Below the pieces are notes generated by a model that was given only the letters and a program-made list of their open reading frames with translations, ran no database searches and was not told the DNA's origin. The translations under genes and the position numbers were made by a program. A stretch of DNA of 64,000 nt. Origin: Escherichia coli (lineage in GTDB: Bacteria; Pseudomonadota; Gammaproteobacteria; Enterobacterales; Enterobacteriaceae). The DNA lies in NCBI RefSeq assembly GCF_009931435.1, contig NZ_CP043414.1, one strand, 5' to 3'. Shown here piece after piece: positions 28,539-31,683 of the stretch; the first letter of the stretch is position 1, and every line of letters starts with the position of its first letter.

Positions 28539-29270
28539 ATGAAAAAAGTTCTGATTGCCGCGTTAATTGCAGGTTTTAGTCTTTCCGCCACAGCTGCCGA
28601 AACTATTCGTTTTGCCACCGAAGCCTCCTATCCTCCGTTTGAATCAATGGATGCAAACAACCAGATCGTTGGTTTTGACGTCGACCTGGCGCAGGCATTG
28701 TGTAAAGAGATTGATGCGACCTGCACTTTCTCTAACCAGGCGTTTGACAGCCTGATCCCAAGCCTGAAATTCCGTCGCGTAGACGCGGTGATGGCTGGTA
28801 TGGATATCACCCCGGAGCGTGAAAAGCAGGTGCTGTTTACCACGCCGTACTATGACAACTCTGCCCTGTTTGTGGGTCAACAAGGTAAATACACCAGCGT
28901 TGATCAGCTGAAAGGCAAAAAAGTCGGCGTTCAGAACGGGACGACGCACCAGAAATTCATTATGGATAAACATCCGGAAATCACCACGGTTCCTTATGAT
29001 AGCTACCAGAACGCGAAACTCGATCTGCAAAACGGTCGTATCGACGGCGTTTTTGGTGACACCGCAGTGGTAACCGAATGGCTGAAAGATAACCCGAAAC
29101 TGGCGGCTGTCGGCGACAAAGTGACCGATAAAGATTACTTCGGTACTGGCCTCGGCATCGCGGTACGTCAGGGCAACACTGAACTGCAGCAGAAATTCAA
29201 CACTGCGCTGGAAAAAGTGAAGAAAGATGGCACTTACGAAACCATCTACAACAAATGGTTCCAGAAGTAA
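28539..29270 (+). CDS. artI: arginine-binding periplasmic protein ArtI
   Basis: 243 aa with signal peptide; polar amino-acid binding protein fold; paralogous to the artJ product in this window. Confidence 0.9.
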   Translation: MKKVLIAALIAGFSLSATAAETIRFATEASYPPFESMDANNQIVGFDVDLAQALCKEIDATCTFSNQAFDSLIPSLKFRRVDAVMAGMDITPEREKQVLFTTPYYDNSALFVGQQGKYTSVDQLKGKKVGVQNGTTHQKFIMDKHPEITTVPYDSYQNAKLDLQNGRIDGVFGDTAVVTEWLKDNPKLAAVGDKVTDKDYFGTGLGIAVRQGNTELQQKFNTALEKVKKDGTYETIYNKWFQK

Positions 29271-29276
29271 TACCTG

Positions 29277-29993
29277 ATGAATGAATTTTTTCCTTTAGCA
29301 AGCGCCGCCGGGATGACCGTCGGCCTTGCCGTTTGTGCATTGATTGTCGGACTGGCGCTGGCGATGTTCTTTGCGGTGTGGGAGTCAGCAAAATGGCGTC
29401 CTGTCGCGTGGGTAGGTTCAGCACTGGTGACGATTCTGCGCGGTCTGCCAGAAATTCTGGTGGTGCTGTTTATCTATTTTGGCTCCTCGCAGTTACTGCT
29501 GACGCTTTCGGATGGCTTCACCATCAATCTTGGGATCGTACAGATCCCGGTGCAGATGGACATTGAGAACTTCGACGTTAGCCCGTTCCTGTGTGGGGTT
29601 ATCGCCCTGTCGCTACTGTATGCCGCCTATGCCTCGCAAACCCTGCGTGGCGCACTGAAAGCGGTGCCGGTGGGCCAGTGGGAATCCGGTCAGGCGCTGG
29701 GGCTGTCGAAATCGGCTATCTTTTTCCGCCTGGTGATGCCGCAGATGTGGCGTCATGCGCTGCCTGGTCTCGGTAACCAGTGGCTGGTACTGCTGAAAGA
29801 TACCGCGCTGGTCAGTTTGATAAGTGTGAATGATTTAATGCTGCAAACCAAAAGCATCGCCACTCGTACCCAGGAGCCATTTACCTGGTACATTGTGGCA
29901 GCAGCGATCTATCTGGTGATTACCCTGCTCAGTCAGTACATTCTCAAACGCATTGACCTGCGCGCGACACGTTTTGAGCGGAGGCCTGGCTGA
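29277..29993 (+). CDS. artQ: arginine ABC transporter permease ArtQ
   Basis: 238-aa multi-TM permease following artI. Confidence 0.9.
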
Positions 29994-30661
29994 TGCTTGA
30001 GTATTTACCCGAACTGATGAAAGGGCTGCACACCAGCCTGACGCTGACGATTGCCTCGCTGATTGTGGCGCTAATTCTGGCGTTGATTTTTACCATCATC
30101 CTGACGCTGAAAACGCCGGTACTGGTGTGGCTGGTGCGGGGCTATATCACGCTGTTTACCGGTACGCCGCTGTTGGTGCAGATCTTCCTGATTTACTACG
30201 GTCCAGGCCAGTTCCCGACATTGCAGGAGTATCCGGCACTGTGGCATCTGTTGTCAGAACCGTGGTTGTGCGCGCTGATTGCGTTGTCGCTGAACAGTGC
30301 GGCGTATACCACGCAGCTATTTTACGGTGCAATTCGTGCAATCCCGGAAGGTCAGTGGCAGTCCTGTAGCGCCCTGGGGATGAGCAAAAAAGATACGCTG
30401 GCGATCCTGCTGCCGTATGCCTTTAAACGCTCACTCTCTTCTTATTCCAACGAAGTGGTGCTGGTGTTCAAAAGTACCTCTCTGGCTTACACCATTACGC
30501 TGATGGAAGTGATGGGATACAGCCAGTTGTTGTACGGGCGCACTTACGATGTCATGGTGTTCGGTGCGGCGGGGATTATTTACCTGGTCGTCAACGGCCT
30601 GCTGACACTGATGATGCGTTTGATCGAGCGCAAAGCGCTGGCGTTCGAGCGACGGAATTGA
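29993..30661 (+). CDS. artM: arginine ABC transporter permease ArtM
   Basis: 222-aa permease; TGATG stop/start overlap with artQ. Confidence 0.9.
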   Translation: MLEYLPELMKGLHTSLTLTIASLIVALILALIFTIILTLKTPVLVWLVRGYITLFTGTPLLVQIFLIYYGPGQFPTLQEYPALWHLLSEPWLCALIALSLNSAAYTTQLFYGAIRAIPEGQWQSCSALGMSKKDTLAILLPYAFKRSLSSYSNEVVLVFKSTSLAYTITLMEVMGYSQLLYGRTYDVMVFGAAGIIYLVVNGLLTLMMRLIERKALAFERRN

Positions 30662-30675
30662 CATGGCTGCATGCT

Positions 30676-30780
30676 GATGCCGGATGATTTGTAGGTCTGA
30701 TAAGACGCGCCAGCGTCGCATCAGACACCAGCACGGTGCCTATGCCGGATGCGGCGTGTACGCCTTATCCGGCATACATA
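30676..30780. repeat. REP/BIME cluster downstream of artM
   Basis: REP-type palindromic units, e.g. tgccggatgcggcgtgtacgccttatccggcataca and gtaggtctgataagacgcg...cgtcgcatcagaca. Confidence 0.7.
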
Positions 30781-30951
30781 GTGCATAGATTAATATAATA
30801 AAGACGGGCAACCCACTAAGTTGTCCGTCTTTTTTTATTCATTACGAATTATTTAATCATATTTATTGCATATAAATTCACTTAATGGCATTGTTATCTC
30901 ATGCCGCAGACACGGCCAAAAATCATAAGATTGACAGACGGGAGTTCCATC

Positions 30952-31683
30952 ATGAAAAAGTTAGTTCTTGCCGCTTTACTTTCATCCTGTGCATTCGGCG
31001 CTTCTGCGGCAGAGAAAATCAATTTCGGCGTATCAGCGACCTATCCTCCCTTTGAATCTATAGGTGCTAATAATGAGATTGTCGGCTTTGATATCGACCT
31101 GGCAAAAGCGTTATGCAAACAGATGCAGGCAGAATGTACTTTTACCAATCACGCTTTCGACAGCCTCATCCCGTCACTGAAATTCAGAAAATATGACGCC
31201 GTTATCTCCGGTATGGATATCACGCCGGAGCGTAGCAAGCAGGTATCATTTACCACGCCCTACTACGAAAACTCAGCTGTTGTGATTGCCAAAAAAGATA
31301 CCTACAAAACGTTTGCCGACCTGAAAGGCAAACGCATTGGGATGGAAAACGGTACAACGCACCAGAAATATATTCAGGATCAACACCCGGAAGTAAAAAC
31401 TGTCTCCTATGACAGTTATCAAAATGCCTTTATCGACCTGAAAAATGGTCGTATTGATGGGGTATTTGGTGACACAGCGGTGGTTAATGAATGGCTGAAA
31501 ACCAATCCACAACTGGGCGTTGCAACAGAGAAAGTAACCGACCCGCAGTACTTCGGCACCGGTCTGGGCATCGCTGTACGTCCGGATAATAAAGCCCTGC
31601 TGGAAAAACTGAATAACGCACTGGCAGCGATTAAAGCAGATGGTACGTATCAGAAAATCAATGACCAGTGGTTCCCGCAGTAA
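30952..31683 (+). CDS. artJ: arginine-binding periplasmic protein ArtJ
   Basis: 243-aa product from ATG 30952 (GGAG upstream), signal peptide MKKLVLAALLSSCAFGASA. Confidence 0.9.
   Translation: MKKLVLAALLSSCAFGASAAEKINFGVSATYPPFESIGANNEIVGFDIDLAKALCKQMQAECTFTNHAFDSLIPSLKFRKYDAVISGMDITPERSKQVSFTTPYYENSAVVIAKKDTYKTFADLKGKRIGMENGTTHQKYIQDQHPEVKTVSYDSYQNAFIDLKNGRIDGVFGDTAVVNEWLKTNPQLGVATEKVTDPQYFGTGLGIAVRPDNKALLEKLNNALAAIKADGTYQKINDQWFPQ

Follow-up and report, generated by a model that had tools for sequence, protein, structure and literature searches.

The region analyzed here (28539–31683) lies within a 64,000-nucleotide stretch of Escherichia coli DNA (the window; contig NZ_CP043414.1) and extends from the first base of the artI start codon to the last of the artJ stop codon. 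The genes in the window follow the textbook order ybjP-artPIQM-artJ-rlmC, with artI encoded between artP and artQ, an order common to the Enterobacteriaceae loci and Yersinia. The following features were assigned, with coordinates referring to the window:

27699–27737, plus strand: artP operator, consisting of two 18-bp ARG-box-like sites (27699–27716 and 27720–27737), 3 bp apart, with 4 and 3 mismatches to the ARG-box consensus
27793–28521, plus strand: artP, ATP-binding subunit of the arginine ABC transporter (NCBIfam equivalog NF008338 ArtP, 501.4 bits versus a cut-off of 369, aligned over 1–242)
28539–29270, plus strand: artI, the in-operon periplasmic substrate-binding protein, 243 aa, Glu28/Gln132 (NF041764 ArtI_Ecoli, Pfam SBP_bac_3)
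29277–29993, plus strand: artQ, permease (NF008337 ArtQ, 466.9 bits versus 277)
29993–30661, plus strand: artM, permease (NF008336 ArtM, 422.7 bits versus 248)
30694–30774, minus strand: palindromic REP/BIME element in the artM–artJ spacer (Rfam RF02564 naRNA4, REP-derived, 75.9 bits versus a gathering score of 59.5)
30800–30842, plus strand: intrinsic terminator at the predicted end of the artPIQM transcript (13-bp stem with 6 G-C pairs, T-run)
30844–30882, plus strand: artJ operator, two ARG-box-like sites (30844–30861 and 30865–30882), 3 bp apart, with 4 and 2 mismatches
30952–31683, plus strand: artJ, periplasmic binding protein, predicted to be transcribed separately, 243 aa, Ser28/Glu132 (NF041765 ArtJ_Ecoli)
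31837–31866, plus strand: terminator-like hairpin 3′ of artJ, abutting the end of rlmC (8-bp stem with 5 G-C pairs, T-run)
31858–32985, minus strand: rlmC, convergent to artJ (from the list of open reading frames)

The genes from artP to artM overlap or are spaced by 6–18 bp, and the name artP is also carried by the counterpart gene in a RefSeq record of 98% identity. For artJ, the mechanical list of open reading frames gave a start at ATG 30901 (260 aa), whereas the real start is ATG 30952 (243 aa, MKKLVL...), because a GGGAG Shine-Dalgarno sequence is located 8 nt upstream, the NCBIfam ArtJ model aligns over 1–243, and the 98% identical RefSeq record is annotated accordingly. Antisense reading frames in artP, artI, and artM (93, 128, and 96 aa) were dismissed as spurious, the strand opposite them being strongly conserved coding sequence.

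The ARG boxes were located with a consensus scan using the canonical 3-bp spacer (ArgR-site design from PMC6640053). The artP operator overlaps a sigma-70-like promoter (27700–27729) found by the promoter scan, and the final ∼110 bp ahead of artP are identical to the characterized control region of E. coli K-12. The terminator at 30800–30842 is the best terminator-like site of the region; the REP/BIME element preceding it accounts for the fact that E. coli genomes contain a median of 20 matching places each. In the artJ operator, the promoter-proximal ARG box has exactly the K-12 sequence and the region is near-identical to the characterized K-12 PartJ, where ArgR represses by steric exclusion of RNA polymerase (PMC6640053). 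Thus, artJ is predicted to be a separate transcription unit 3′ of artM with an ArgR-controlled promoter of its own, with artI residing inside the operon, and the regulation of the two genes has, as judged from their control regions, diverged.

ArtI and ArtJ are paralogs, as had originally been predicted. BLASTP aligned them without gaps, with 153 of 241 positions identical (63%; 80% positives; E = 3e-123); low identity, the outcome that would have spoken against paralogy, was not observed. For the mature part, identity was 145/224 (64.7%). The extended identical blocks described previously are indeed present at the same positions in both proteins, YPPFES...IVGFD.DLA.ALCK at residues 31–56 and GVFGDTAVV.EWLK at residues 170–183; the longest stretches free of any difference are NGRIDGVFGDTAVV (14 aa), AFDSLIPSLKFR (12 aa), and YFGTGLGIAVR (11 aa). 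Each protein passed the cut-off of its own equivalog model and not that of the other: ArtI scored 539.8 bits with NF041764 (cut-off 522; aligned over 1–243 of 243) and 399.6 with the ArtJ model (cut-off 510), ArtJ 533.1 bits with NF041765 (cut-off 510; aligned over 1–243) and 383.2 with the ArtI model (cut-off 522). Both belong to Pfam family PF00497 (SBP_bac_3; ArtI 144.7 and ArtJ 145.9 bits versus 26.4) and to the lysine-arginine-ornithine subfamily TIGR01096 (310.9 and 300.6 bits versus 256.35), with 2y7i, 3tql, 1laf, and 1hsl among the solved relatives. By inspection, both N-termini begin with MKK and continue with hydrophobic residues up to an A-x-A site (ArtI ...SATAA|E; ArtJ ...GASAA|E), and the solved homologues start at aligned residue 19–22; both proteins are predicted to be secreted type-II binding proteins. 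They are well-known arginine-binding paralogs, and the predicted pair is therefore correct but ordinary and already known.

The duplication that gave rise to artI and artJ is ancient, not recent. Comparison of their codons yielded a saturated dS of 2.44 (dN 0.26), and their DNA is 66.8% identical overall. The identical blocks are what purifying selection has preserved in an old duplicate and are no sign of recency; dN/dS of 0–0.06 demonstrates that both genes are under strong purifying selection. ArtI is the most conserved of the Art proteins: its sequence is 100% identical to one from E. albertii, and dN was 0 at a dS of 0.39 in the comparison with this species. Since no other art gene is under such strong constraint, ArtI clearly does something important. 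The dS of artJ exceeded that of artI in every species comparison, and artJ has a lower G+C content (45.6% versus 49–55%) and GC3 (0.48 versus 0.57–0.70) than the operon genes.

The ybjP-artPIQM-artJ(-rlmC) layout was present in at least 74 of 81 loci of Enterobacteriaceae species representatives and also in Yersinia kristensenii. The contig search for ArtI returned, among its best 80 matches, only Enterobacteriaceae by record title where one was given; deeper dating was based on two genomes outside this family, Yersinia and Vibrio. In Vibrio vulnificus, the locus reads artP-SBP-artQ-artM, with a single binding protein, and a second one, or artJ, was not found there. Identity between ArtI and ArtJ is 72% in Yersinia and 63% in Enterobacteriaceae, and rates have therefore been uneven, or some gene conversion has occurred in one lineage in the past. 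A neighbor-joining tree (Kimura distances, 200 bootstraps, sparse outgroups, Pasteurellaceae sequences absent) was calculated with representatives restricted to single-domain proteins, the search having been dominated by long proteins with 4–8 SBP_bac_3 repeats whose summed scores ranked above those of the orthologues. ArtI formed one clade (98.5%), ArtJ another together with STM4351 and P0125 (88.5%), and the two grouped together versus Vibrio, Coxiella, and the other representatives (77.5%). Support for monophyly of ArtI plus ArtJ is thus moderate; it fits the local duplication proposed originally, more precisely one within the lineage and beside the operon. It has been argued that LapT of Mannheimia is an ArtJ orthologue (PMC2228313), which would place the duplication deeper or imply transfer.

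Two other histories of the pair were weighed against these data. Only 1.7 kb separates artI from artJ, both are on the plus strand, and several peptide runs of 11–14 residues are identical between them, which could suggest that the two genes were duplicated locally in recent times or are still undergoing gene conversion, with the identical blocks as conversion tracts. This has virtually no probability, because the DNA below the blocks differs (no exact match exceeds 14 nt, third codon positions are 44% identical, and dS is saturated), ArtI and ArtJ sequences from different genera fall into separate clades, each monophyletic, contrary to what concerted evolution predicts, and Yersinia already has the pair; synonymous saturation and reciprocal monophyly together refute recent tandem duplication and concerted evolution for this lineage. 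More serious, but still improbable, is the view that artJ is no local duplicate but a horizontally acquired homologue (xenologue) inserted by chance 3′ of artM. The low G+C content and GC3 of artJ, its consistently higher dS, the REP elements and terminator between artM and artJ, and the fact that its relatives STM4351, P0125, and Mannheimia lapT stand alone elsewhere (PMC2228313) are in line with this view. However, enteric ArtI and the ArtJ group are sisters, with no nesting of the latter within a foreign clade, at least 74 of 81 loci, as well as Yersinia, have artJ beside its cognate transporter, and the two proteins have equal length (243 aa) and align without gaps.

Pocket residues were mapped by aligning ArtI and ArtJ (MAFFT) with ArgT and HisJ from K-12, STM4351, and Coxiella 3tql, the positions thus being sequence-based and LAO being 35–37% identical. 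Residues R77, T121, and D161 of LAO reportedly anchor the α-carboxylate and α-ammonium groups of the ligand (Oh et al, in 1993, who reportedly also described the role of D11). ArtI and ArtJ are identical at Y31, E35, F69, G87, D89, R94, T135, T136, H137, and D174, and R94, T136, D174, Y31, and F69 are invariant across 81 ArtI and 72 ArtJ sequences. By analogy, Arg94, Asp174, and Thr136 would hold the α-amino and α-carboxylate groups of an L-amino acid in both proteins, Glu35 and Asp89 would pair with the cation, and Tyr31 and Phe69 would stack on the ligand side chain, as do the residues of the aromatic sandwich Y14/F52 in LAO (10.1101/350942). Two positions differ consistently. LAO D11 aligns with E28 of ArtI and S28 of ArtJ, and LAO L117 with Q132 and E132, respectively; Glu28/Gln132 was found in 81/81 ArtI and Ser28/Glu132 in 72/72 ArtJ sequences, and the swap holds in Yersinia too. 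The former state also occurs in the Vibrio protein and in Coxiella, the latter in STM4351 and a further Salmonella paralogue. In total, 28 sites are conserved inside each of the two clades and different between them. The analogue of LAO L117 in Tv2483 from Treponema vincentii, E128, makes a bidentate interaction with the guanidinium group, and its exchange for alanine lowers affinity ∼5000-fold (10.1101/350942). The 28/132 swap is therefore a candidate specificity determinant, which would be only a small addition to the known picture.

The ligand spectrum of ArtI is contested. ArtJ from K-12 binds arginine with a Kd of 0.4 μM (PMC6640053). ArtI is stated to bind arginine and ornithine (PMC6640053) or to be near non-specific (PMC2228313), its arginine affinity being, according to the latter report (citing Wissenbach 1995), ∼10-fold lower and near its affinity for other amino acids; in the K-12 annotation, it is a “putative” binding protein only. 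Arginine-induced c-di-GMP signaling via STM1987 in Salmonella requires ArtI (PMC8846402, PMC7423604). Concerning regulation by GcvB, neither artI nor artJ is mentioned in PMC9299463, only STM4351. The original prediction that specificity is retained but diverged is thus supported, with reservations: the fixed pocket swap and the literature speak for it, but sequence alone does not establish divergence and the published accounts of the ArtI ligand disagree. Identity of all core ligand-anchoring residues, and reviews which assign arginine to both proteins (PMC8050422, PMC6640053), would also agree with two redundant arginine binders retained only for gene dosage or because they are regulated differently, with neutral differences in the pocket. 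This is rather unlikely, considering that every one of the 81 and 72 orthologues conforms to the 28/132 swap, that the 28 clade-differing sites point to clade-specific constraint, that the reported affinities differ ∼10-fold (PMC2228313), and that the arginine/c-di-GMP response of Salmonella names only ArtI as required (PMC8846402).

ArtI and ArtJ are thus very probably old paralogs which arose by local duplication within the lineage and have since become divided by pocket and regulation. In an ancestral operon artP-SBP-artQ-artM, the single binding-protein gene would have been copied to a site just 3′ of artM, giving rise to artJ, after the Vibrio lineage had split off but before Enterobacteriaceae parted from Yersiniaceae. 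Both proteins presumably feed the ArtQ–ArtM–ArtP2 translocator, docking being assumed. ArtI would have kept the ancestral Glu28/Gln132, and ArtJ, like STM4351, would have acquired Ser28/Glu132, Glu132 putting a carboxylate where Tv2483 forms its bidentate salt bridge. We infer that affinity or specificity depends on residues 28 and 132, which may underlie the tight, arginine-specific binding by ArtJ versus the weaker or broader binding by ArtI. Transcription of artJ from its own ArgR-controlled promoter past the operon terminator would be strongly repressed by arginine; artI would share the transcript of the transporter genes, driven by PartP; this promoter is about ninefold less repressible by ArgR and also repressed by Lrp. 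Whether relocation of the carboxylate from Glu28/Gln132 (ancestral) to Ser28/Glu132 (derived) was the switch that created a high-affinity, arginine-specific ArtJ/STM4351 clade, with ArtI keeping a distinct role, is a tentative proposal, somewhat more likely to be wrong than right.

As a discovery, the pair has little value: it has been described since 1993–1995, curated models name both members, and their regulation has been dissected in detail. ArtI, contested in its ligand and still “putative” in K-12, is yet under the strongest constraint of the art genes, and the fixed 28/132 swap bears on how arginine specificity arose in the family. If the carboxylate switch holds true, ArtI would have kept a broader or different ligand, or a role in diguanylate cyclase sensing as in Salmonella, and the long disagreement over its ligand would be settled. 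With pocket and promoter both diverged, ArtI/ArtJ would make a clean example of subfunctionalization after duplication, alongside HisJ/ArgT.

The locus corresponds to artPIQM-artJ (b0864–b0860) of E. coli K-12 in its genes, their order, and their neighbors (ybjP upstream, rlmC-ybjO-potIHGF downstream). Studies of the K-12 cluster were reportedly published by Wissenbach et al in 1993 and 1995 and by Caldara et al in 2007. More recent work on this cluster is available (Torres Montaguth et al, 2019; PMC6640053). The control regions, tandem ARG boxes included, hardly differ from those of K-12. Identity between window and K-12 is ∼96–97% overall and 89.6–95% across the art genes, which are allelic differences; that of the window to the E. 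albertii type strain is 89.6%, and that to a rare lineage labeled E. coli is 98%. These DNA identities led to rejection of an E. albertii origin for the window, which the identical ArtI protein had suggested. Unlike K-12, the window has 2.6 kb of low-GC DNA inserted between ybjQ and ybjP. HisJ and ArgT (LAO), encoded by argT-hisJQMP, likewise are an adjacent pair of paralogous SBP_bac_3 proteins which share one translocator (HisQMP2) and differ in regulation and ligands. Their mutual identity is 67% in K-12 as computed here (70% according to PMC6640053), but they belong to another subfamily (35–40% identity to ArtI/ArtJ) and differ in the pocket, where D11, S69-S70-S72, and L117 of LAO/HisJ correspond to E or S, A/S-G-D, and Q or E in ArtI/ArtJ. 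The closest solved structure is STM4351 from Salmonella enterica (PDB 2y7i), which is 59% identical to ArtJ (316 bits) and 54% to ArtI. It is a third, stand-alone paralogue that E. coli does not have (PMC9299463), and it was reported to bind L-arginine and N-methyl-arginine only (10.1101/350942). STM4351 clusters with ArtJ and shares its Ser28/Glu132 state, but has Ala86 instead of serine, and its reported affinity of 2.9 μM is weaker than the 0.4 μM of ArtJ.

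The interval 28539-31683 begins exactly at the start codon of artI and ends exactly at the stop codon of artJ, and lies in the known artPIQM-artJ cluster, with which the locus agreed in every respect tested. The genes were assigned from the list of open reading frames and NCBIfam equivalog models:

27793-28521, plus strand: artP (ArtP model, 501; cut-off 369)
28539-29270, plus strand: artI (ArtI model, 539.8; cut-off 522)
29277-29993, plus strand: artQ (ArtQ model, 467; cut-off 277)
29993-30661, plus strand: artM (ArtM model, 423; cut-off 248)
30952-31683, plus strand: artJ (ArtJ model, 533.1; cut-off 510)

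Under these curated models ArtI fell below the ArtJ cut-off and ArtJ below that of ArtI, and the gene names are identical in a RefSeq chromosome 98% identical across 16 kb. The neighbors are ybjP upstream and the convergent rlmC, ybjO, and potIHGF downstream; artM and artJ are separated by 290 bp. The true start of artJ is the ATG at 30952, which is preceded by a GGGAG ribosome-binding site and gives a full-length profile alignment; the mechanically called start (ATG 30901) was rejected on these grounds. The signal peptide of this ArtJ (30952-31020; MKKLVLAALLSSCAFGASAA) contains a cysteine at residue 13 in a lipobox-like L-S-S-C. A cysteine within the first 20 residues was found in 6 of 76 ArtJ orthologs (Escherichia loci and Klebsiella indica), and P0151, the closest K-12-like ArtJ among those seen, has phenylalanine there. 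Because the preceding hydrophobic region is very short, Cys13 is probably irrelevant.

The original prediction held that identical blocks shared by ArtI and ArtJ, two periplasmic binding proteins, reflect a local duplication with presumably diverged substrate specificity. Their likeness, which is already known, was confirmed and is far beyond chance: the two proteins (243 residues each) share 153 of 241 positions (63%; 80% positives, no gap, E 3e-123), and both quoted blocks are found in each, at matching positions. The duplication stood as well, with the qualification that it is ancient, and diverged specificity is not visible from sequence alone. A recent duplicate is refuted by the DNA, which differs underneath the identical peptide blocks: the two genes agree at 66.8% of nucleotides (75%, 82%, and 44% at first, second, and third codon positions), no exact match exceeds 14 nt, and the Nei-Gojobori dS of 2.44 is saturated (dN 0.26).

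When the DNA around ArtI homologs was surveyed in GTDB species representatives (81 loci), the order ybjP-artP-artI-artQ-artM-artJ was found in at least 74, usually followed by rlmC. The exceptions were mostly loci ending at contig ends; artJ is frameshifted in one (L022), and none was found inside the flank examined in Raoultella planticola (L038). Yersinia kristensenii has the same arrangement, continuing to ybjO and potIHGF; its artM-artJ spacer is longer (∼810 bp) and contains a called ORF of 90 codons on the opposite strand (L083, 5389-5661) with no Pfam match. In Vibrio vulnificus, artP-SBP-artQ-artM is followed by an unrelated gene, and there is therefore a single substrate-binding protein (SBP). 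In a neighbor-joining tree built from 44 sequences over 220 columns, with 200 bootstraps, enteric ArtI formed a clade (98.5%), as did ArtJ together with the Salmonella arginine binder STM4351 and a further Salmonella paralog, P0125 (88.5%); the two clades were joined at 77.5%, apart from the remaining representatives, those of Vibrio and Coxiella included. For the lineages sampled, which do not include Pasteurellaceae, it is simplest to suppose that the operon's binding-protein gene was itself duplicated once, later than the separation from the Vibrio lineage and before Enterobacteriaceae and Yersiniaceae diverged, with STM4351 and P0125 as later copies off the ArtJ branch. In Pasteurellaceae artI lies within the operon, and Mannheimia has a stand-alone arginine-binding lapT (PMC2228313). 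The top-scoring relatives in a protein library clustered at 50% (P0121, P0123, P0124, P0128, and others) were giant proteins of 1000-3000 residues with 4-8 SBP_bac_3 domains in tandem.

Both paralogs are strongly constrained, with dN/dS between 0 and 0.06 in comparisons from E. coli to Cedecea and Mangrovibacter. ArtI, accordingly, is no spare copy in decay; it is 100% identical between the window and E. albertii despite a dS of 0.39. Measured against the window proteins, ArtJ was the more diverged in 72 of 72 Enterobacteriaceae genomes, with a mean identity of 88.8% vs 92.9% for ArtI. Between families the order is reversed (Yersinia vs window: ArtI 73.7%, ArtJ 79.4%), in keeping with the long stem that enteric ArtI has in the tree. 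The Yersinia pair is 72% identical, compared with 63% for the Enterobacteriaceae pair. GC3 is lower in artJ (0.48) than in artI (0.57), and dS was higher for artJ in all seven species comparisons giving both values, up to ∼2.6-fold (2.17 vs 0.84 against Citrobacter), which suggests weaker codon-usage constraint on artJ or more recombination.

The window, chiefly 17000-36000, is not typical E. coli. Overall it is ∼96-97% identical to K-12, falling to 89.6-94% across ltaE/ybj-art-pot, with artJ in the lowest kilobase; among 5453 E. coli records the art locus had a match of at least 99% in only 11 and of 90-95% in 5387. The pattern suggests a divergent or introgressed haplotype, or else a genome from a cryptic clade, in spite of which the window's ArtI matches that of E. 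albertii completely. An independent listing (PMC12595684) has artI-Q, potF-H, rlmC, and poxB as "high divergence orthologs" of some E. coli strains. Between ybjQ and ybjP lies a 2.6-kb, low-GC (∼32%) insert:

24487-27045: insert
24636-26477, minus strand: 613-residue ORF (589 residues as annotated in RefSeq)

The ORF, annotated as "pentapeptide repeat-containing protein" or "hypothetical," weakly matched pentapeptide-repeat families (PF00805, 23.9 bits, cut-off 20.2; PF13599, 31.4 bits, below the cut-off of 38) and had no sequence match in the PDB; presumably it resembles EspX-type secreted effectors. K-12 lacked the insert, as did the representatives of E. albertii, Citrobacter, and Salmonella. 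Of 5426 E. coli genomes, 1128 had it, at one chromosomal place and mostly in a form only ∼82% identical (O157:H7 included), and matched at 99% or more in just 15.

The control regions of artP and artJ are nearly identical to their K-12 counterparts; these regions and the DNA flanking artJ contain the following elements:

27699-27737: ARG-box-like pair upstream of artP, equivalent to that before artJ
30694-30774, minus strand: REP/BIME, naRNA4/CssrE match (Rfam, 75.9 bits; gathering score 59.5)
30800-30842: strong intrinsic terminator in the artM-artJ spacer
30844-30861 and 30865-30882: two ARG-box-like 18-mers before artJ, with the canonical 3 bp between them
31731-31773, minus strand: REP/BIME, ES036/CssrF match (Rfam, 38.8; gathering score 37.6)

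The paralogs therefore diverge in regulation too, besides the pocket. The palindromes flanking artJ on both sides match Rfam families of REP-derived RNAs and are probably REP elements of the ordinary kind, not dedicated sRNA genes; owing to such palindromes in the artM-artJ spacer, a 5-kb query matched each E. coli genome at a median of 20 places.

For the ligand pocket, ArtI and ArtJ were aligned with four proteins: K-12 ArgT (LAO) and HisJ, STM4351 (2y7i), and the arginine-binding protein of Coxiella (3tql). The two paralogs do not differ at the positions that, in LAO, hold the ligand backbone and sandwich the side chain (Y31, F69, G87, R94, T135, T136, and D174), nor at E35, D89, and H137, and all ten residues are invariant in 81 ArtI and 72 ArtJ sequences. 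At 28 positions each clade is at least 95% conserved, yet the two differ; four of these are pocket positions. At the position of LAO D11, ArtI has Glu28 and ArtJ Ser28; at that of LAO L117, ArtI has Gln132 and ArtJ Glu132. This reciprocal swap is fixed (81/81 ArtI, 72/72 ArtJ), also in the Yersinia pair. Glu28/Gln132 is shared by ArtI, the Vibrio and Coxiella proteins, and most distant single-domain representatives, and hence ancestral, whereas Ser28/Glu132 occurs only in ArtJ, STM4351, and P0125. Enteric ArtI has Ser30 and Ala86, where Yersinia ArtI, the Vibrio protein, and ArtJ have Thr30 and Ser86; these changes came later. Position 132 matters because L117 is the analog of E128 in Tv2483, the arginine-binding protein of Treponema vincentii, which contacts the guanidinium group through a bidentate salt bridge and whose alanine mutant binds ∼5000-fold more weakly (10.1101/350942). 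STM4351, which carries the ArtJ signature, has only L-arginine and N-methyl-arginine as ligands (10.1101/350942). From the sequence alignment we infer that Glu132 contributes to the tight arginine binding of ArtJ, and the fixed carboxylate swap is one small addition, a testable candidate for the difference in specificity.

ArtI is described as an arginine- and ornithine-binding protein (PMC6640053, PMC8050422), or as having an arginine affinity ten-fold below that of ArtJ and about equal to that for other amino acids (PMC2228313, summarizing Wissenbach et al, 1995); the K-12 annotation has a "putative" binding protein. In Salmonella, the c-di-GMP response to sub-micromolar arginine needs ArtI and the diguanylate cyclase STM1987 (PMC8846402, PMC7423604, PMC12341379). 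Descriptions of the ligand or role of ArtI still differ, despite very strong constraint on the protein. Both proteins are supposed to feed the ArtQ-ArtM-ArtP translocator, ArtQMP2 (PMC6640053), by analogy with HisJ and ArgT at HisQMP2. The HisJ/ArgT pair is the closest analog in design; the closest solved structure is STM4351.
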